Assembly (NCBI GenBank): GCA_963833225.1
Contig: CAWHXD010000008.1
Location: 128,001 to 192,000 of the forward strand
Direction of reading: 5' to 3'
Origin: an uncultured Chloroflexia bacterium
Lineage (GTDB): Bacteria > Chloroflexota > Limnocylindria > Limnocylindrales > CSP1-4
DNA: 64,000 bases
Shown here: piece by piece, positions 42,259-49,500 of the stretch
Numbering within the stretch: position 1 is the stretch's first letter
Layout of the letters: every line of letters begins with the position of its first letter
Translations under genes and position numbers: made by a program
Notes under the pieces: generated by a model
Told to the model about the DNA's origin: nothing
The model's database searches: none
What the model saw: the letters and a program-made list of their open reading frames with translations, nothing else

Positions 42259-43926
42259 CTAGACCTCGACCACGACGGGGAAGACCATCGGCCGGCGCTT
42301 GGTCTGCTCGTAGAGGAACCGGGAGACGCCGCCCTTGATCTGCTCCTTGAGCAGCGCGATCTCGGAGATCCGGTCGCCGGGGGTCTCCACCGCCTCGCGG
42401 ATCCGGCGGATCGCCTCCTCGATCAGCGGGTCGTCCTCGTTCCCGTGGACGAACCCGCGGGTGATGATCTCCGGCCGGCCGACCATCTTGTTGGTCTGCT
42501 TGTCGATCTGGACCACGACCATGAACATGCCGTCGTTGGCGAGCGCACGGCGGTCCCGCAGGACGACGTCCCCCACCTCGCCCACCGACAGGCCGTCCAC
42601 GTAGACATACCCCGCGGCGACGGGCTGGCCCCGGCGCGCGGACCCGTCCGCGAAGATCTCGATCGGCGTCCCGTTCTCGATGATGAACACGTTCTCGGGC
42701 TCCACGCCCGTCTCGATCGCCAGGCGCCCGTGCTGCACCTGCATCCGGAACTCGCCGTGCATGGGGATGAAGTACCGGGGCTTGGTGAGCCCCAGCATGA
42801 GCTTGAGCTCCTCCTGGCTGGCGTGGCCCGAGACGTGCGCGTGCTTGATCGTGTGGTAGTAGACGTTGGCACCCGCCTTGAACAGGTTGTCGATGGTCCG
42901 GGCCACGTATTCCTCGTTGCCCGGGATGGGGCTCGCGGACACGATGACCGTGTCGCCCTGCTGGATCTCCACGAACCGGTGGTCCCGGTTGGCCATCCGC
43001 GCGAGTCCCGACATCGGCTCACCCTGCGCCCCGGTCGTCGCGATCACGGTCCGATGGGCCGGGTGATCGCCGATCTTGTCCTTGGCCAGGAACTGCGACG
43101 GCTCGAAGTTGAGATAGCCGAGGTCCGACGCGATCCGGGTGTTCTGCTCCATCGACCGGCCGACCACGGCCACCTGCCGGTTGAACGTCTTGGCGGCGTC
43201 GAACACCTGCTGGATGCGGGCGATGTTGGATGCGAAGGTGGCGACGATGACCCGCCCCTCGAGGCCCTCCATGATCTCGCGGAAGGCCTCGCCCACCGTG
43301 CGCTCGGACGGCGTGTAGCCCGGGTTCTCGGCCCGCGTCGAGTCCGACAGGAGGCAGATCACGCCCTCCTGGCCCATGCGCGCGATGGTGGCGAACTCGG
43401 ACGGCTTGCCGTCAACGGGGGTGTGGTCGAACTTGAAGTCCCCCGTGGTGACCACGACCCCGACCGGGGTCCGCAGGGCAAGGCCCATGGCGTCGGGGAT
43501 CGAATGGCCGACCCGGAACGGGATGACGTCGAACGGGCCGATCGTGATCTCATCGCCCGGATCGAGCGCGAGGATCGGGTTGGCGTGGAGCTTGTGCTCC
43601 TTGACCTTGTTGCCCAGCAGGCCGCGGGCGAGGGTGCTCGCGTACACCGGCACGCCGGGGAACTCCGGGAGCACGTAGGGCAGGCCGCCGACGTGGTCCT
43701 CGTGGGCGTGGGTGATCAGGAACGCCCGGACCTTGGCGCGGTTCTCCTTGAGATAGGTCACGTCGGGGACGACGAGGTCGATGCCGAACATCTCCTCGTC
43801 GGGGAACATGAGCCCGCAGTCGATCACGACGATGTCGTCGCCGTACTCCACGACGTAGCAGTTCTTGCCGATCTCGCCCACACCTCCGAGCGGGATGATG
43901 CGGAGCGGGATGTTGGGGTCGGCCAT
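42259..43926 (-). CDS. rnj: Ribonuclease J
   Basis: PLGGVGEIGKN, THAHEDHVGG, GDFKFD, HVSGHA, HGE. Confidence 0.96.
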   Translation of the reverse strand: MADPNIPLRIIPLGGVGEIGKNCYVVEYGDDIVVIDCGLMFPDEEMFGIDLVVPDVTYLKENRAKVRAFLITHAHEDHVGGLPYVLPEFPGVPVYASTLARGLLGNKVKEHKLHANPILALDPGDEITIGPFDVIPFRVGHSIPDAMGLALRTPVGVVVTTGDFKFDHTPVDGKPSEFATIARMGQEGVICLLSDSTRAENPGYTPSERTVGEAFREIMEGLEGRVIVATFASNIARIQQVFDAAKTFNRQVAVVGRSMEQNTRIASDLGYLNFEPSQFLAKDKIGDHPAHRTVIATTGAQGEPMSGLARMANRDHRFVEIQQGDTVIVSASPIPGNEEYVARTIDNLFKAGANVYYHTIKHAHVSGHASQEELKLMLGLTKPRYFIPMHGEFRMQVQHGRLAIETGVEPENVFIIENGTPIEIFADGSARRGQPVAAGYVYVDGLSVGEVGDVVLRDRRALANDGMFMVVVQIDKQTNKMVGRPEIITRGFVHGNEDDPLIEEAIRRIREAVETPGDRISEIALLKEQIKGGVSRFLYEQTKRRPMVFPVVVEV

Positions 43927-43944: not shown

Positions 43945-44707
43945 CTAGAAGAGGGTGAGCTGGGACGCATCGTCGGCCGCGGGGTCGGCGGCGCTGGGCG
44001 ACGGGGTGGGGGCCGGCGGCGGGTCGGCGGGACCGGGGGTCGGCGGCGGGTCGTCGGGACCCGGGTCGGAGGATGGCGGGGCGGCTTCCCCGACCGCGGA
44101 GGCCGGGTCGGCACGACGTTCGCGGGCATCGAGCAGGACGGTCGGAACCCGGGCCATGTCCTCGAAGCTCTCGCGCTCGATGGCCGCGGTTCGCAGCGCC
44201 GCGGCGGGGTGGTACATCGCGAACACGAGGGCGTTCCGGGCGCCGGTGGCGGGGTCCACCGGGGCCGTCGTGCCGTGGACCTGCCCGATCCGGGCGCCGG
44301 GCATGAACGCGCCCATCGAGTACCGGCCCAGGGTCACGACCACGGCGGGATCGAGCACCTCCAGCTGCCGGCGGAGGAACCCGGCGCAGGCCGCGATCTC
44401 GTCCGGTTGCGGGTCCCGGTTGTCCGGCGGGCGGCACTTCACGACGTTGGTGATGAACACGTCCTCCCGGCGCCAGCCGACGTGCGCGCAGGAGACGAAC
44501 GAGCAGCGCGCCGGCACGGCCCACGAACGGGCGCCCCTCGCGGTCCTCGTTGAACCCCGGCCCCTCGCCGACGAACACGACCTCCGTGTCCGGATCGCCC
44601 TCGCCCGGGACAGCGCGGGTGCGCCCCTCGTGCAAGCGGCAGGCCGTGCAGTCCCGGACCTCGTTCGCGATCAGCTCGAGCGCCGCGCGGCGCTCGTCGC
44701 GGGTCAC
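43945..44707 (-). CDS. Uracil-DNA glycosylase family 4 (Fe-S), frameshifted near 44500
   Basis: C..C.L, VGEGPG, GRPFVGRAG, ITNVVKCRPP.NR, YHPAAALR. Confidence 0.88.
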
Positions 44708-45789
44708 GCGGGCCGTCCCCCGGACGCTGCCAGCACGCCCCGCTCGGATCCCTTCCGCACCCAGCCACGCTCGACGAGGACCTCGGCGATCTCCACGGCG
44801 TTGGAGGCCGCGCCCTTGCGCAGGTTGTCCGAGACCACCCAGAAGGCCAGGCCGCGGTTGCCGTCGATCGACGGGTCCTGGCGGACGCGGCCGACGAAGA
44901 CCTGGTCCGAGCCCGCCGACTCCGTCGCGAGCGGGTAGACGTTGTTGGCTGGATCGTCCTGGACCACCACGCCGGTGACGGCCGCGAACAGCTCCCGGGC
45001 CTCCTCGGGCGTGATCGGGTCCCGCGTCTCCACGTGGACCGCCTCCGAGTGGCCGATGAACACCGGCACCCGGACGGCCGTGCACGAGACGCGCAGGTCC
45101 GGCAGGTGCAGGATCTTGCGGCTCTCGGTCACGACCTTCCACTCCTCCTTCGTGTACCCGTTGTCGAGGAACACGTCGATGTGGGGAAGGGCGTTGAACC
45201 CGATGACGTGGGGATACACGTTGGCGACCTTCGGGCGGCCCTCCGCGTGGGCCTTGATCTGCTCGTCAAGCTCCACGATCGCCTTCTGGCCGGTCCCTGC
45301 CACCGCCTGGTAGGTGTCCACCACCATGCGCTCGATGCCCACGGCGTCGCGCAGCGCCATCAGCGGCGGCATCAGCTGCATCGTGGAGCAGTTGGGGTTG
45401 GCGATGATGCCCTCGTGCCAGGCGAGGTCGTCCGGGTTGACCTGGCTGACCACGAGCGGCACCGACGGGTCCATCCGCCAGGCGCTGGAGTTGTCGACCA
45501 CGACACAGCCGCGCTTCGCGGCCTCGGGGGCCAGCGCCTTCGAGGTCCCGCCACCGGCGCTGAAGATCGCGATGTCGATCCCCTCGAACGCGTCGGGGGT
45601 GGCCAGCTCCACGGTGATCGCGTCGCCGTTCACGGTCATCACCGTGCCGGCCGAGCGCTCGGAGGCCAGCAGGCGCAGCTCCGTGTACGGGAACCGCTTC
45701 TCGGCGAGAACGGCGACCATGGTCCGGCCGACGGCGCCGGTGGCGCCGACGACGGCGACGGTGAGCTTGTCTGGGAGGCTTCCGGGCAC
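44704..45789 (-). CDS. asd: Aspartate-semialdehyde dehydrogenase
   Basis: VVGATGAVG, DNSSAWR, NPNCST, RVPVF.GH, DNLRKGAA. Confidence 0.96.
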   Translation of the reverse strand: MPGSLPDKLTVAVVGATGAVGRTMVAVLAEKRFPYTELRLLASERSAGTVMTVNGDAITVELATPDAFEGIDIAIFSAGGGTSKALAPEAAKRGCVVVDNSSAWRMDPSVPLVVSQVNPDDLAWHEGIIANPNCSTMQLMPPLMALRDAVGIERMVVDTYQAVAGTGQKAIVELDEQIKAHAEGRPKVANVYPHVIGFNALPHIDVFLDNGYTKEEWKVVTESRKILHLPDLRVSCTAVRVPVFIGHSEAVHVETRDPITPEEARELFAAVTGVVVQDDPANNVYPLATESAGSDQVFVGRVRQDPSIDGNRGLAFWVVSDNLRKGAASNAVEIAEVLVERGWVRKGSERGVLAASGGRPA

Positions 45790-45961
45790 GGTCCGACCTG
45801 CTAGCGAGGAGTTGTCGGGCACGGCGCGGAGTATACCAGCGGGCCTCCCCCGCCCTCCCACGGGCCGCAGCGACCGCGCACGGAAGACCCAAGGTGGGTC
45901 GGGGACGGAACCTGGAGCGGCGGCGCATCGCCGCCTCGACGCGGGCCCAACGGGGTGGGGA

Positions 45962-46393
45962 TCAGTCCCGCTCCATCCAGCGCTCGGGATGGATCAGCGG
46001 GCCAAACCCGTAACGCGCATAGAAGGACCCGGCGTCGTTGGTCGCGAGGACCATCCGCCGCAGGCCCTGCAGACGGGGGTCCGCGACGATCGCGGCCATC
46101 AGCCGGCTGCCGACGCCCGCCGAACGCCATGCCTCGTCGACGAACACGTCGCACACCCAGGCGAAGGTCGCCTCGTCGGTGACGACGCGCGCGAACCCGA
46201 CCTGGCGATCGCCGGCCAGGGCCGAGAAGCACAGGGAGCCGCGGAGCGAGGCCTCGACCCGCGCCCGGGACCGGCCCATCGCCCAGTAGGCGCGCTCGGA
46301 CAGGGCGGGATGCAGCCAGCCGAGGTCGACATCCGCGGGATCGATGCTGATCCGGAGGCCGTCCGACGGGACGACCTCCGCATCGCGGGTCAT
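45962..46393 (-). CDS. GNAT family N-acetyltransferase
   Basis: QVGFARVVTD, DVFVD..WR..GVG, FYARYGF. Confidence 0.9.
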   Translation of the reverse strand: MTRDAEVVPSDGLRISIDPADVDLGWLHPALSERAYWAMGRSRARVEASLRGSLCFSALAGDRQVGFARVVTDEATFAWVCDVFVDEAWRSAGVGSRLMAAIVADPRLQGLRRMVLATNDAGSFYARYGFGPLIHPERWMERD

Positions 46394-46397
46394 CCGG

Positions 46398-48983
46398 CTA
46401 CTTCGCCAGATGCCGCTGCATCGCCGCCTTGCGGGACAGGTTGACGCGGCCCTGGCGGTCGATCTCGGTGACCACCACCATGACCTCGTCGCCGACGGAC
46501 ACGACGTCCTCGACGGACGGCACGTGGTAGTCGGCGAGCTCGCCGATCCGGATCAGGCCTTCCTTGCCGGGCAGGATCTCCACGAAGCAGCCGAAGGTCA
46601 TCAGCCGGGTGACCTTGCCCAGGTACAGGGCGCCGATCTCGACCTCGCGGGTGAGGCTCTCGATCCAGGTGATCGCCTTGCGCGAGTTCTCGCCGGAGAC
46701 GGCCGCGATCTCCACGGTGCCGTCGTCCTCGACGTTGATCTCGGTCTCGGTCTCCTCCTGGATCTTGCGGATCATCGATCCACCCTTGCCGATGATCTCG
46801 CGGATCTTCTCGGGGTTGATCTTGATCGTGATGATCCGCGGGGCGAAGTCGGACATCTCCTCGCGAGCCGAGGGGAGGACCGCGGTCATCTTGTCAAGGA
46901 TGAACAGGCGGGCCGCCAGGGCCTGCTTGAGACCCTCACGGATGACCCGCTCGTCGATGCCCTTGACCTTGATGTCCATCTGGAGAGCCGTGATGCCCTC
47001 CGTGGTGCCGGTCACCTTGAAGTCCATGTCGCCGATCGAGTCCTCCTTGCCGAGGATGTCGGTCAGCACCACGAAGTTGCCGGTATCGGCGTCGAGCACG
47101 AGGCCCATCGCCGCGCCGGCCACCGGGGCCTTGATCGGCACGCCGGCATCCATGAGGGCGAGGGTCGAGCCGCAGGTCGAGGCCATGGACGTCGAGCCGT
47201 TGCCGGCGACCACCTCGGACACGAGGCGGATGACGTACGGGAACTCGTCGTGCGACGGGAGGACCGGCAGCAGCGCCCGGCCGGCCAGGTTGCCGTGGCC
47301 GATGTCGCGCCGGCTGGGGCCGCGCATGGGCTTGTTCTCGCCCGTGCTGTACGGCGGGAAGTTGTAGTGGTGGAGGTACCGCTTCTCGGTCTCGGGGCTG
47401 ATGGTGTCGATCCGCTGGACGTCCGAGGACGCCCCCAGGGTGGCGACGGTCAGCGCCTGCGTCTGGCCACGGGTGAACAGGCCCGAGCCGTGGGCGCGCG
47501 GCAGCAGGCCGACCTCGACCGAGATCGGGCGGATCTCGTCGGTGGCACGGCCGTCCATCCGGAGCCCCTCGGCGAGGACGAGCCCGCGGACGGTCTTCTT
47601 GTTGACGAGGTTGAACAGGCTCTTGCTCACGCGCGCGCTGCGACGCGCCGCCTCCAGCATGGCAGCCGCCTTCGCGGCATCCCCGCGGGTGGCCCGGACG
47701 GCATCCGCGATGCCGGCCTTGAGCGTCTCGAGGCGGCCCGGCAGCTCGTTGCCGAACCAGATCAGCAGGTTCGCGGTCGCCTCCGCGTCCGGAAGGGCGC
47801 GGTGGTTCTCGGACAGCTCGACCCCGAAGAACTTGGCCAGGGTGCCCAGCTTGTAGTTCTCGAGATCCGGGTAGCCCTCGCGGGCGATCACCAGCGTGTC
47901 CAGGTAGCGGCCCTGCTCCACGCGGGTGCCGTCGCCGAGAGCCTCCTCGATGAACCCGATGTCAAACCCGACGGAGTGGCCGACGAACGGCGCATCGCCC
48001 ACGAAGTCGAGCGCCTTGCGGGCGGCCTCGGCCGGGGTCGGGGCGCCCTTCACGTCCTTGTCCGTGATGCCGTGCATCTGGTTGCCCACGATCGGCCGGC
48101 CCGGGTTGACGAGGGTGGACCAGCGGTCGGTGATCTTGCCGCCCTTGACCCGCACCGCGGCGACCTCGACCAGGTCCGCCATCTTGGGGTCCGTGCCCGT
48201 GGTCTCGACGTCCACCACGACGAACTCGCCGCCCGCCTTCGCCAGGTCGGCGAAGTTGAGCACGGAGCTGGTCGCCGGCTCGATGTAGGGCAGGCGCTTG
48301 GGCTTGCCGACGAGCTCCCGGAGCTTCTCCTGGATGTCGATCAGCGGCTGCAGGGCCCGGTGGCCGAACAGGATGGCCTCGGCCATCACGTCCTCGGGCA
48401 GGATCTTGACGCCCGCCTCGACCATCATGATCGCGTCGCGCGTGCCGGAGACGATCAGGTCGAGCGCCGAGTCGGCCAGCTGCGGGTAGGTGGGGTTGAG
48501 GACGAACTCGCCGTCGATGTAGCCGACGCGGACCGCGCCGACCGGACCCTGGAACGGGATCTCGCTGATCGTGAGCGCCGCGGACGCGGCGATCGTGCCC
48601 AGGATGTCCGGGTCGTTCTCGTGGTCCGTCGAGAGGACGGTGATCACGAGCTGGATATCGTCCTTGTAGCCCTCGGGGAACAGGGGGCGGATGGGGCGGT
48701 CCGTGAGGCGCGCCGCGAGCGTCGCTGCCTCGGACGCGCGGCCCTCGCGCTTGATGAAGCCGCCGGGGATCTTGCCCGCGGCGTACATGCGCTCCTCGAA
48801 GTCGACCGTCAGCGGGAAGAAGTCGAGGCCGGGGCGCGGCTCGGACCGGTTCGCGGTCCCGAGGACCATGGAGTCGCCGTAGCGCAGGGTGACGGCGCCG
48901 CCGGCGAGCCCGGCAAGCTTGCCGGTTTCCAGCGTGAGCGTGCGATCGCCGAACTCGATCTCGAGCGTGGTGGGAGTGGGCAC
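46398..48983 (-). CDS. pnp: Polyribonucleotide nucleotidyltransferase with an internal DEDDh exonuclease domain
   Basis: DFFPLTVDFEE, AGKIPGGF, RxDGR, RRDIGHG, DILGKEDSIGDMDFK, KH and S1 domains; insert with DVETTG / FD / HRALPDA. Confidence 0.96.
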   Translation of the reverse strand: MPTPTTLEIEFGDRTLTLETGKLAGLAGGAVTLRYGDSMVLGTANRSEPRPGLDFFPLTVDFEERMYAAGKIPGGFIKREGRASEAATLAARLTDRPIRPLFPEGYKDDIQLVITVLSTDHENDPDILGTIAASAALTISEIPFQGPVGAVRVGYIDGEFVLNPTYPQLADSALDLIVSGTRDAIMMVEAGVKILPEDVMAEAILFGHRALQPLIDIQEKLRELVGKPKRLPYIEPATSSVLNFADLAKAGGEFVVVDVETTGTDPKMADLVEVAAVRVKGGKITDRWSTLVNPGRPIVGNQMHGITDKDVKGAPTPAEAARKALDFVGDAPFVGHSVGFDIGFIEEALGDGTRVEQGRYLDTLVIAREGYPDLENYKLGTLAKFFGVELSENHRALPDAEATANLLIWFGNELPGRLETLKAGIADAVRATRGDAAKAAAMLEAARRSARVSKSLFNLVNKKTVRGLVLAEGLRMDGRATDEIRPISVEVGLLPRAHGSGLFTRGQTQALTVATLGASSDVQRIDTISPETEKRYLHHYNFPPYSTGENKPMRGPSRRDIGHGNLAGRALLPVLPSHDEFPYVIRLVSEVVAGNGSTSMASTCGSTLALMDAGVPIKAPVAGAAMGLVLDADTGNFVVLTDILGKEDSIGDMDFKVTGTTEGITALQMDIKVKGIDERVIREGLKQALAARLFILDKMTAVLPSAREEMSDFAPRIITIKINPEKIREIIGKGGSMIRKIQEETETEINVEDDGTVEIAAVSGENSRKAITWIESLTREVEIGALYLGKVTRLMTFGCFVEILPGKEGLIRIGELADYHVPSVEDVVSVGDEVMVVVTEIDRQGRVNLSRKAAMQRHLAK

Positions 48984-49113: not shown

Positions 49114-49383
49114 CTAGCGGCGAAGTCCGAGCGAGCCGATCACGGCTCGATAGCGAGCGGGGTCCTTCTTCACCAGGTAGGCGAGAAGGCGCCGGCGCTG
49201 TCCCACGAGCTTGAGGAGGCCGCGGCGCGAATGGTTGTCCTTCGGGAAGCGGCGGAGGTGCTCCGTCAGGTCCCGGATCCGCTCCGTCAGGAGCGCGATC
49301 TGGACCTCGGGCGAACCCGTGTCGCCGTCCTTGACGGCGTACTCGGTGATGACCTCTTGCTTCTTCTCCCGCGCGAGCGGCAC
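49114..49383 (-). CDS. rpsO: 30S ribosomal protein S15
   Basis: [33 protein letters not shown]; GTG start with GGAGG SD gives 89 aa. Confidence 0.97.
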
Positions 49384-49500
49384 TCGATCCTCCGACACGA
49401 ACGATGGCGTGACTACACAACTTGTTCTTCGACCCGCGGAGGATAGCAGGCGCTTCCATGTTCCGCCACCAGCCCGGGGGCACGTCGCGGGTGGCCGGCC

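Follow-up and report, generated by a model that had tools for sequence, protein, structure and literature searches.

Background

PNPase is among the most studied enzymes of RNA decay, and models of bacterial RNA turnover are shaped by the products it leaves and by its need for phosphate. Its helical domain is poorly understood, and roles in DNA repair have been reported for the enzyme. Canonical bacterial PNPase (TIGR03591) has the order first RNase PH core (PH1), helical linker, second RNase PH core (PH2), KH and S1, and its gene stands in an rpsO-pnp context. RNase PH-type rings are also known to be paired with hydrolytic DEDD exonucleases. The eukaryotic exosome ring works with Rrp6, a DEDD-family nuclease. 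As far as the cited passages go, such a pairing in RNA decay is likewise described for human mitochondrial PNPase-SUV3 with the DEDDh enzyme REXO2 (PMC7261184) and for the Caulobacter degradosome with RNase D (PMC4245959). The PNPase helical domain is itself described as lying opposite KH and S1 and as contributing to a pore that leads to the active site (Nurmohamed et al. 2009, PMC2723993).

DEDDh domains occur N-terminal to an SF2 helicase in the exonuclease-DinG helicases (8zef, B. subtilis DinG, TIGR01407, PRK08074) and as the proofreading domains of PolC and DnaQ (epsilon) (9qpc, 2p1j, 8h18, 2ido). Here we describe a bacterial PNPase in which a domain of this kind is internal to the PNPase chain, with no helicase and no attached polymerase, PHP or polymerase context. 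In the REXO2, RNase D and Rrp6 systems the two activities reside on separate proteins, whereas here one chain would carry both, with a predicted three of each per trimer; the DEDD domain also belongs to another subfamily than theirs. A literature search found no paper on a PNPase-DEDDh fusion, in line with the initial annotation, which knew of no description, and the design seems to be undescribed in print.

A housekeeping pnp gene with a nested exonuclease domain

The gene was found in a stretch of 64,000 nucleotides, hereafter the window, from an uncultured Chloroflexota bacterium. It is the housekeeping pnp gene behind rpsO and the sole PNPase locus of the source genome (86% complete). Its reading frame, which starts with GTG, is uninterrupted from 46398 to 48983, and the GC content is flat over both insert junctions (0.68-0.73). 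The features of the locus are as follows.

49114..49398, minus strand: rpsO (ribosomal protein S15), directly upstream of pnp on the same strand (Ribosomal_S15 PF00312, E 8e-36)
46398..48983, minus strand: pnp coding sequence, 861 aa plus stop, PNPase with nested DEDDh domain (ORF; TIGR03591)
48297..48983, minus strand: PH1, residues 1-229, with GKPK at its end (RNase_PH and RNase_PH_C)
48228..48296, minus strand: linker before the insert, residues 230-252, one helix at 239-249 (AF2 secondary structure)
47754..48227, minus strand: DEDDh 3'-5' exonuclease domain, residues 253-410 (PF00929; catalytic D258, E260, D341, H394, D399)
47568..47753, minus strand: helical remnant, residues 411-472 (AF2 models; partial PF03726 match)
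46869..47567, minus strand: PH2 with the phosphorolytic site, residues 473-705 (RNase_PH at 483-616)
46659..46832, minus strand: KH domain, residues 718-775 (KH_1 PF00013, E 1.6e-10)
46428..46643, minus strand: S1 domain, residues 781-852 (PF00575, E 1.1e-16)

A Pfam scan of the 861-aa protein returned the order RNase_PH, RNase_T (PF00929), RNase_PH, KH, S1, with no helicase domain; RNase_PH (E 3.8e-50) and RNase_PH_C each matched in two stretches. The NCBIfam PNPase equivalog model TIGR03591 scored 936.3 bits against a cut-off of 525, its match being split in two by the insert. The protein was compared with the solved PNPases 5yjj, 7ogk/3gcm (E. coli), 4aim (C. crescentus) and 1e3h (S. antibioticus), to which Foldseek matches reached E values down to 5e-61; the sequence matches were of 708 bits to 5yjj and 690 bits to 7ogk. 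PH1 aligns with residues 3-243 of E. coli PNPase 7ogk, and between E. coli positions 243 and 296 the present protein has about 160 extra residues, which form a full DEDDh domain.

The phosphorolytic motifs are those of canonical PNPase, with RRDIGHG at residues 558-564, NGSTSMAS at 595-602 and GDMDFK at 651-656 in PH2. Residues N595-S602, D648 and G651-K656 are invariant in 36/36 fused sequences; we take the GSTSMA-type loop and the D...GDMDFK segment to be the phosphate- and metal-binding residues of PH2. The main outlines drawn in the initial annotation were thus recovered: an 861-aa housekeeping PNPase behind rpsO, a frame unbroken at both junctions, retained phosphorolytic motifs, KH and S1 domains, and a PH1-PH2 segment put at about 245 aa, for which the spacing from GKPKR (226) to RMDGR (479) is about 250 aa.

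The insert is a complete DEDDh domain

The inserted segment amounts to an entire DEDDh domain, of the DnaQ/epsilon kind. The RNase_T profile PF00929 matches residues 255-407 over positions 1-164 of its 164 (E 2e-26; 93.9 bits, cut-off 24), and the model of the dnaq subfamily domain, TIGR00573, exceeds its cut-off of 71.5 bits with 73.7. ExoI spans F254-G263 (D258, E260), ExoII V334-F344 (D341) and ExoIII H394-T403 (H394, D399). The DnaQ/epsilon-like domain with complete motifs that had been read from the translation at ~47755-48230 is therefore confirmed by the profile, family-model and Foldseek matches, its limits being 47754-48227. An AF2 model of the domain (pLDDT 89.3, pTM 0.85) has an RNase H-like alpha/beta fold and matches the exonuclease domains of DinG, PolC, DnaQ and epsilon.

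The five catalytic residues D258, E260, D341, H394 and D399 are invariant in 36/36 fused sequences, and the carrier families are only ~43% identical in the insert region. The dN/dS of the DEDDh domain was 0.08-0.25 (9 pairs), compared with 0.04-0.18 for the PH cores, values that point to purifying selection; the linker ahead of the insert (residues 230-252) gave higher values of 0.18-0.75. Judged by this conservation, DEDDh activity is likely to be retained.

The exonuclease probably sits within the helical domain

The initial annotation placed the exonuclease domain in place of the helical domain. This was not what we found: the stretch from PH1 to PH2 still has about 95 residues outside the DEDDh domain, compared with ~77 in insert-free sister PNPases, and the AF2 models put one helix ahead of the DEDDh domain and three behind it. 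The last DEDDh helix is predicted to run unbroken into the helical bundle (396-431) and to be followed by helices at 436-450 and 454-472. These last two helices correspond to the C-terminal half of PF03726, a sub-threshold match: positions 35-80 of this helical-domain profile match residues 434-479 with E 1.4e-3 and 19.5 bits, so that the fused protein stays below the cut-off of 24.6 bits, whereas sister canonical PNPases match the full profile with 41-46 bits. As modelled, the DEDDh domain is thus nested in the helical domain, with helices kept on both sides, and would be mounted rigidly on the helical bundle through the continuous helix. The full-length AF2 model is of moderate quality (pLDDT 71.3), with low-confidence stretches at 48-84, 518-561 and 779-861.

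Distribution of the fusion and assembly control

The genome-by-genome survey covered Chloroflexota. The fusion was present in 23/24 genomes of the same genus and in 16/16 of family f2; in one same-genus genome (G014) the insert region was split over three frames. Searching the class sample with the insert as query, matches at E<=1e-20 were obtained in 44/44 genomes of family f1, 6/6 of f2 and 49/50 of f4, and the corresponding counts in the phylum sample were 23/23, 4/4 and 16/16. All 13 loci sampled from these three families (13/13) were PNPase ORFs with the insert. The fusion is therefore common to three families of one Chloroflexota class, named Limnocylindrales by the sources.

Family f3 also matched the insert query, in 28/49 genomes of the class sample, but the 7/7 loci sampled carried the match on the N-terminal DEDDh domain of a DinG-like helicase and not on PNPase, and f3 was for this reason left out of the carrier count. 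A further 18 genomes of the phylum sample also matched, though with the domain core only, at ~40% identity. A DEDDh-bearing ORF was found at 6/7 of the loci fetched from these genomes and none was a PNPase, the domain being near the N-terminus of a protein of 913-970 aa (4 loci) or of roughly 700 aa (2 loci). Every one of the best 120 among 1816 matches combined PF00929 with PF01138. Atlas clusters combining PF01138 and PF00929 came from Chloroflexota, and the best 150 matches of an exhaustive search of representatives were fragments of the fused family or other architectures.

To control that the fusion was not a chimera, junctions were sought in other data. Contigs from other studies, from both DNA and RNA libraries, bridge both junctions; they belong to relatives and not to the window's own strain, and none of the sequencing runs contained as much as half of the words sampled. 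A chimeric assembly was rejected because the fusion recurs in >100 independent assemblies and such bridging contigs exist. The junctions called for by the initial annotation are hence real in relatives, and its proviso that relatives might lack the insert is answered by f1, f2 and f4, which carry it. The relatives' contigs come from wetland, salt-marsh, soil and sediment metagenomes, and the fused enzyme may therefore be common in nature though absent from model organisms.

Subtype and origin of the insert

The best NCBIfam models for the domain were PRK07883 DEDD exonuclease, PolC and DinG. Its top Foldseek match was the S. aureus DinG exonuclease domain 8zef; the DinG, PolC, DnaQ and epsilon exonuclease domains were matched with E values of 1e-11 to 1e-8 and an rmsd of 2.0-2.8 for compact matches. 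PolC 9qpc superposed with an rmsd of 2.0 over 161 columns at 35% identity, and phmmer linked the insert to PolC/DnaQ with E 2.7e-23. RNase T folds ranked below DinG, PolC and epsilon, and no Orn-type structure was among the fold matches listed. By sequence and fold, the closest relatives are DNA enzymes (DinG, PolC, DnaQ, FAN1-like or BRCT fusions). These comparisons classify the insert as DinG/PolC-type and not Orn/RNase T-type; the RNase T-like or Orn-like nature that had first been considered does not agree with the models, the tree or the folds.

When 51 DEDDh domains were placed in one tree, the 23 inserts among them formed a single clade (support 94/99.2), from which the phylogeny shows the insert to have arisen once. 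The clade falls inside a weakly supported DinG-type group (82/78) and has no specific sister relation to the DinG domains of the class itself. The DinG helicase part was detected in 47/49 genomes of f3 and 1/1 of f5 in the class sample, against 0/6 of f2, 0/50 of f4 and 1/44 of f1, the latter a weak match (3e-18) in a 2041-aa frame; it had no match in the source genome (86% complete). The f3 and f5 genomes checked had a canonical PNPase and carried the DEDDh domain on a DinG-like protein instead, ~40% identical to the insert. New in the present analysis are thus the DinG/PolC type of the insert, its single origin and the finding that sister families keep a canonical PNPase together with an exonuclease-DinG helicase. 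The insert was gained on the same branch to which the absence of DinG maps, and the two hence amount to a single coincidence and not to a repeated pattern.

Other exonucleases in the source genome

In the source genome (86% complete), PF00929 matches only twice; the second match is weak and lies at the C-terminus of a protein of 671 aa. Neither an Orn-type nor any other PF00929 candidate, nor a PF01612 protein (NrnC/RNase D type), nor an RNB protein (PF00773) was found there; the genome does encode RNase PH and RNase J. Directly beyond the end of the window stands a gene for an NrnA-like DHH/DHHA1 protein, which scores 78 bits against the NrnA model cut-off of 350. The check proposed in the initial annotation, whether carriers lack orn, nrnA or nrnB, thus had a mixed outcome, with no Orn-type gene found in this genome but an NrnA-like gene adjoining the window. 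RNB proteins were found in 0/151 genomes of the class and 31/401 of the phylum, and the sister families f3 and f5, with canonical PNPase, equally had no RNB match. That the fusion makes up for the loss of RNase R or RNase II was accordingly dismissed as a specific explanation, because non-carriers share the absence and RNB is rare throughout the phylum.

Possible functions of the fused enzyme

The explanation that we favour, with a confidence poised halfway between belief and doubt, is that the sole PNPase of this lineage is a 3'-5' exonuclease with two active sites, a phosphorolytic ring and a hydrolytic DEDDh domain acting mainly on RNA. A trimeric RNase PH ring with KH and S1 would degrade RNA by phosphorolysis, and each protomer would bear a DinG/PolC-type hydrolytic exonuclease within its helical domain. 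Solved PNPases have this helical domain on the side of the ring that faces away from KH/S1, where it borders a side pore leading to the phosphorolytic site; the DEDDh site, if placed there, would take 3' ends that the phosphorolytic site cannot finish, or ends emerging on that face. Candidate substrates are leftover oligonucleotides of short length, or 3' ends encountered under phosphate scarcity. The outcome would be hydrolytic trimming independent of phosphate in a lineage whose only other recognisable hydrolytic 3'-5' exoribonuclease is the NrnA-like protein. That phosphorolytic and hydrolytic activity may be coupled in one enzyme is a reasonable inference. Against the favoured explanation stand the DNA enzymes as nearest relatives of the domain, the NrnA-like protein, which may already deal with short oligonucleotides, the shared want of RNB in sister families with canonical PNPase, and the one same-genus genome with a split insert region.

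A possible alternative, to which we give clearly less credence, is that the domain is a DNA or RNA:DNA-hybrid exonuclease doing the job of the DinG exonuclease domain in a lineage devoid of the DinG helicase. It might trim single-stranded DNA 3' tails and remove the RNA strand of R-loops at stalled forks, with the PNPase ring and KH/S1 serving as single-strand binder. Besides the tree grouping, the fold match to 8zef, the complementary distribution in the class and the situation in f3 and f5 genomes, this proposal draws on B. subtilis DinG, which in the cited passages degrades single-stranded DNA 3'-5' and the RNA strand of hybrids, and the authors of that work list PNPase as a further 3'-5' exonuclease for such 3' tails (PMC12525004). 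However, the complementary distribution reduces to the one coincidence noted above, the insert clade is not the specific sister of the class's own DinG domains and shows no sign of deriving from the lineage's own DinG gene, and the protein that hosts the domain is an enzyme of RNA, encoded in the usual rpsO-pnp setting.

A bolder reading makes the fused enzyme a one-chain bacterial equivalent of the eukaryotic exosome. The ring would thread a single strand through its channel and bring the 3' end to three hydrolytic DEDDh sites fixed on its far face; once the lineage had given up the exonuclease-DinG helicase, the enzyme would also have taken over the work of that helicase on R-loops and single-stranded DNA 3' tails, so that a single essential protein would serve both RNA decay and genome maintenance. 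We regard it as speculative and unlikely.

Slightly more doubtful still is the idea, put first in the initial annotation, that the domain is mainly a tethered nanoRNase, an analogue of Orn or REXO2 that would convert the 2-5 nt end products of PNPase to mononucleotides. NanoRNases of the Orn type work as homodimers whose pocket is small and closed, and the insert is DinG/PolC-type, with no Orn-type structure among the fold matches listed. The idea is also weakened by the NrnA-like gene, since its DHH/DHHA1 protein, though below the NrnA cut-off, may already handle short oligonucleotides. What speaks for it is the genome's want of Orn-type and PF01612 genes, its second PF00929 match being the weak one in the 671-aa protein, together with the described position of the helical domain along the pore to the phosphorolytic site (PMC2723993) and the precedent of mitochondrial PNPase and REXO2, as presented in the cited passages (PMC7261184).

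Finally, domains inserted in housekeeping enzymes do sometimes lose activity, but a catalytically silent structural or regulatory module (e.g. a platform for binding nucleic acid or a partner), or an assembly artefact, is highly improbable in view of the invariant catalytic residues in divergent families, the purifying selection on the insert, as strong as that on the PH cores, and the independent assemblies and DNA- and RNA-library contigs that carry the fusion.

Significance

A natural PNPase with a conserved DEDDh domain on each protomer offers a ready-made system for studying the coordination of phosphorolytic and hydrolytic 3'-end chemistry. The fused enzyme also provides a handle on what the helical domain and the side pore do, and it raises the question of whether the DNA-repair roles reported for PNPase extend through a DinG-type nuclease.

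Domain organisation of the fused PNPase

The initial annotation had described a polynucleotide phosphorylase (PNPase) with a built-in DEDDh exonuclease domain. This observation proved right in all details that could be checked. The reading frame follows rpsO, has the Pfam order RNase_PH/RNase_T/RNase_PH/KH/S1, and matches TIGR03591, the NCBIfam PNPase equivalog, in two stretches (936 bits, cut-off 525). The gene order is rpsO, pnp, GNAT acetyltransferase, asd, rnj.

Genes of the pnp region (window positions) and domains of the pnp product (residues, Pfam)
49114-49398: rpsO, directly upstream of pnp
46398-48983, minus strand: pnp, a single 861-aa open reading frame without stops
45962-46393: GNAT acetyltransferase, between pnp and asd
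44704-45861: asd, between the GNAT acetyltransferase and rnj
42271-43902, minus strand: rnj, RNase J (TIGR00649, 600 bits), same strand as pnp and about 2.5 kb downstream of it
before RNase_T: RNase_PH and RNase_PH_C, first copy (PH1)
255-407: RNase_T (PF00929), E 2e-26, 93.9 bits against a cut-off of 24
after RNase_T and before KH_1: RNase_PH and RNase_PH_C, second copy (PH2)
718-775: KH_1
781-852: S1

The PF00929 match spans profile positions 1-164 of 164, and the best NCBIfam models for the middle part of the protein were the DEDD exonuclease PRK07883, PolC and DinG. GC content is unchanged over both insert junctions. No second PNPase locus turned up when the entire assembly (3.89 Mb, 20 contigs, 86% complete) was searched for the family.

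Position of the DEDDh domain

The DEDDh domain had been annotated as standing in place of the helical domain. Instead, it is nested inside it, because helices remain on both sides and the final ones match the C-terminal half of PF03726, the Pfam helical-domain model, below cut-off. The insert-free sister PNPases match PF03726 in full. Two AlphaFold models were used, one of the whole fused protein (pLDDT 71.3) and one of residues 226-482 (pLDDT 89.3, pTM 0.85). Both show a single helix at 239-249 ahead of the DEDDh domain, a last DEDDh helix running unbroken to residue 431, and two further helices at 436-450 and 454-472. Judging from model confidence, the DEDDh domain appears to be rigidly joined to the helical domain.

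Compared with E. coli PNPase (7ogk), residues 3-243 of the fused protein align to 3-243 and residues 456-857 to 296-695, so that about 212 residues stand for about 52; the net gain of about 160 residues corresponds to the length of a single DEDDh domain. Between GKPK (226-229) and DGR (477-479) lie about 248 residues, of which 153 belong to the Pfam DEDDh match. The roughly 95 non-DEDDh residues left between the cores compare with roughly 77 in insert-free sister-family PNPases.

Occurrence of the fusion

The insert region served as query (residues 215-470 or 236-440) at several taxonomic scales. The best 120 of 1816 database matches, each a protein of about 860 aa or a piece of one, all combine PF00929 and PF01138; their sources are labelled Chloroflexota or Candidatus Limnocylindrales, and they go by the names 'polyribonucleotide nucleotidyltransferase' or 'DNA polymerase III epsilon subunit family exonuclease'. 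Hundreds of fused sequences are already in databases under generic names. Whole genomes of 23 of 24 same-genus species carry the insert, the sole miss (G016) being 62% complete, as do 16/16 genomes of a second family, f2 (genome size 1.0-1.4 Mb).

That relatives should carry the insert was borne out in a class sample, where it was found in three families: f1 (44/44), f2 (6/6) and f4 (49/50). The only f4 miss, G096, gave no PNPase match at all. All 13 fetched loci from these families code for a PNPase with the insert. In a 401-genome phylum sample, the insert with its flanks was restricted to f1 (23/23), f2 (4/4) and f4 (16/16); 18 other genomes matched the domain core only, at about 40% identity. 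Seven of these core-only loci were fetched; six yielded a DEDDh-bearing ORF, in no case a PNPase.

In the sister families f3 and f5, three genomes (G055, G067, G052) encode a normal PNPase in frames of 744-760 aa, matching residues 2-230 and then 424-459 to 854, and nothing of the stretch in between. A fourth genome, G070, is uninformative, its pnp being divided between two contigs. Matches to the insert query in f3 (28/49) were ruled out as PNPase fusions, since in 7/7 sampled loci the query had hit a DinG-like helicase (PF00929, DEAD, Helicase_C_2; PRK08074 566 bits, below cut-off) in its N-terminal DEDDh domain. Three insert-free PNPases of f5 and f3 (loci L009, L010, L011) bear a 40-50 residue Arg/Gly/Pro-rich tail after S1 (alignment A1 columns 878-925), absent from all fused PNPases in that alignment.

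No sequencing run contained half or more of the sampled words of the stretch. Bridging of both junctions, which speaks against a chimeric assembly, was nevertheless seen in contigs that other studies had assembled from close relatives, for example X1 record 5 (48085-48350, 5 differences), X1 record 3 (47516-47788) and X2 record 19 (47590-47874). Contigs from RNA libraries (X9 records 26, 29, 30) also span both junctions, although this origin alone is no proof of transcription. In one same-genus genome (G014:C1:378314-378930) the insert region matches in three frames (query 1-158, 82-121, 155-205), which suggests frameshifts or assembly indels in that one genome, through either sequencing error or decay.

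The class tallies of insert and DinG include unpublished genomes (G122, G131, G156 in f4; G102, G126, G139, G145 in f3). When these were removed, the insert count in f4 was 46/47 and the DinG count in f3 43/45, so no conclusion depends on them.

Origin and conservation of the insert

Maximum-likelihood analysis of 51 DEDDh domains separated the 23 PNPase inserts from the rest by a branch with ultrafast bootstrap 94 and SH-aLRT 99.2; among the inserts, f4 stood apart from f1 and f2. A PNPase-core tree was built with the insert columns removed and five other Chloroflexota PNPases included. There the fused proteins, 23 in all, grouped in a single clade (SH-aLRT 100) and the insert-free proteins of f3 and f5 in a second (99); one of the five outgroup rows stood apart from the other four. 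Both trees show the same split. The simplest reading is a single insertion in an ancestor shared by f1, f2 and f4, followed by vertical inheritance.

Residues D258, E260, D341, H394 and D399 of the DEDDh domain are invariant in 36/36 fused sequences, as are R558, R559, G562-G564, N595-S602, D648 and G651-K656 of the PNPase, while the insert region shows just 41-44% identity between f1 and f4. Over nine pairs (Nei-Gojobori), dN/dS was 0.08-0.25 for the DEDDh domain, near that of the PH cores (0.04-0.18), with weaker constraint on the flanking linker and helices (0.15-0.75).

Relatives of the DEDDh domain

By its DNA-enzyme relatives, its place in the tree and its fold matches, the insert is epsilon/DinG-like, not Orn- or RNase T-like. 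Among the matches listed in the exhaustive search, its nearest non-PNPase relatives were FAN1-HTH/VRR-NUC proteins, PolC, DinG helicases and proteins with BRCT or UvrC motifs. The insert clade lies within a DinG-type group (82/78, a weak value). The top fold match of the domain model was S. aureus DinG (8zef, E 1.1e-11); PolC (9qpc) superposed with an rmsd of 2.0 over 161 columns at 35% identity, DnaQ and epsilon were also among the best, and RNase T came next (about 4e-8).

Some of the matched proteins combine several domains. P0132 (1045 aa) carries three tandem RNase_T domains and a UvrB/UvrC motif, and P0154 (1631 aa) is PolC-like and contains two RNase_T domains. P0177, P0185, P0221, P0234, P0257 and P0261 (about 705-736 aa) combine FAN1 HTH, VRR-NUC and a C-terminal DEDDh domain, and such proteins rank among the insert's closest non-PNPase relatives in the matches listed.

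Other nucleases and DinG

The source genome has just two PF00929 matches, the pnp insert and a weakly scoring domain at the C-terminus of a protein of 671 aa (L002:1438-3453, minus strand, G000:C8 ~459.3-461.3 kb; DEDD 41 bits). The first 480 residues of the latter have no Pfam match, and its branch in the DEDDh tree is very long. RNase PH and RNase J are both present; PF01612 and RNB were not found in the 86% complete assembly. Just beyond the window end lies a further candidate.

G000:C8:192536-192982 (ORF L036:994-2031), minus strand: 345-aa DHH/DHHA1 protein

Among NCBIfam models NrnA fits this protein best, but at 78 bits it stays below the cut-off of 350; by sequence the protein is likely a nanoRNase/pAp phosphatase relative. 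The suggested check on whether carriers lack orn, nrnA and nrnB has a mixed answer in this genome: neither an Orn-type candidate nor a PF01612 match was found, but an NrnA-like protein is present, below cut-off.

RNB was found in 0/151 class genomes and in 31/401 Chloroflexota genomes, against 11/14 control genomes. Because RNB is rare in the whole phylum, its absence is background, and we rejected it as an explanation of the fusion.

The DinG helicase part was detected in f3 (47/49) and f5 (1/1). It was not found in the source genome, and carriers gave 1/44 in f1 (a weak, different protein), 0/6 in f2 and 0/50 in f4. The class splits into a group with canonical PNPase and exonuclease-DinG and a group with PNPase-DEDDh and no DinG. 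Since both differences map to one branch, this amounts to a single evolutionary coincidence; the complementary distribution is suggestive and does not amount to statistical evidence.

Possible functions

According to PMC2723993, E. coli PNPase has its helical domain on the face opposite KH/S1. This domain helps to form a pore through which the active site can be reached by a second route; in the authors' view, that route serves nucleoside diphosphates and phosphate. We favour, at about even confidence, a bifunctional RNA 3'-end machine. The PNPase ring would degrade RNA by phosphorolysis, and DEDDh sites rigidly mounted on its far face would hydrolyse what phosphorolysis leaves or cannot start, a reaction requiring no phosphate.

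A DinG-like role on DNA or hybrids is a serious rival, tentative but compatible with the bifunctional RNA role. The weakly supported DinG-type grouping and the S. aureus DinG fold match speak for it, as does the lack of the helicase in carriers, but insert gain and DinG absence on one branch count as one coincidence. In B. subtilis, DinG digests ssDNA in the 3'-5' direction as well as the RNA strand of hybrids, and it clears R-loops; the authors of that study mention PNPase as a further enzyme that can process 3' tails (PMC12525004). S. aureus DinG needs both activities for crosslink repair (PMC12345164). A pure nanoRNase role seems improbable, given the NrnA-like DHH protein, below the NrnA cut-off, and a domain that is not Orn-like. 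That the insert is a silent module is very improbable in view of its five invariant catalytic residues and its dN/dS near that of the PH cores.

Novelty

No paper describing a PNPase-DEDDh fusion was found in the PNPase, DEDD(h), DnaQ-like, RNase T, Limnocylindria and Chloroflexota literature (supplementary files and subscription journals lay outside the search), in agreement with the initial annotation, which knew of none. A 2026 Limnocylindria genomics paper (PMC13212565) gave 0 term matches for PNPase, exonuclease, DinG and RNase. What is added here is how far exactly the fusion extends within the class, its single origin and DinG-type affinity, the selection analysis, the distribution of DinG complementary to it, and the negative outcome for the ideas that invoke RNase R or a nanoRNase. 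The PNPase-DEDDh fusion is a new architecture built of known parts.
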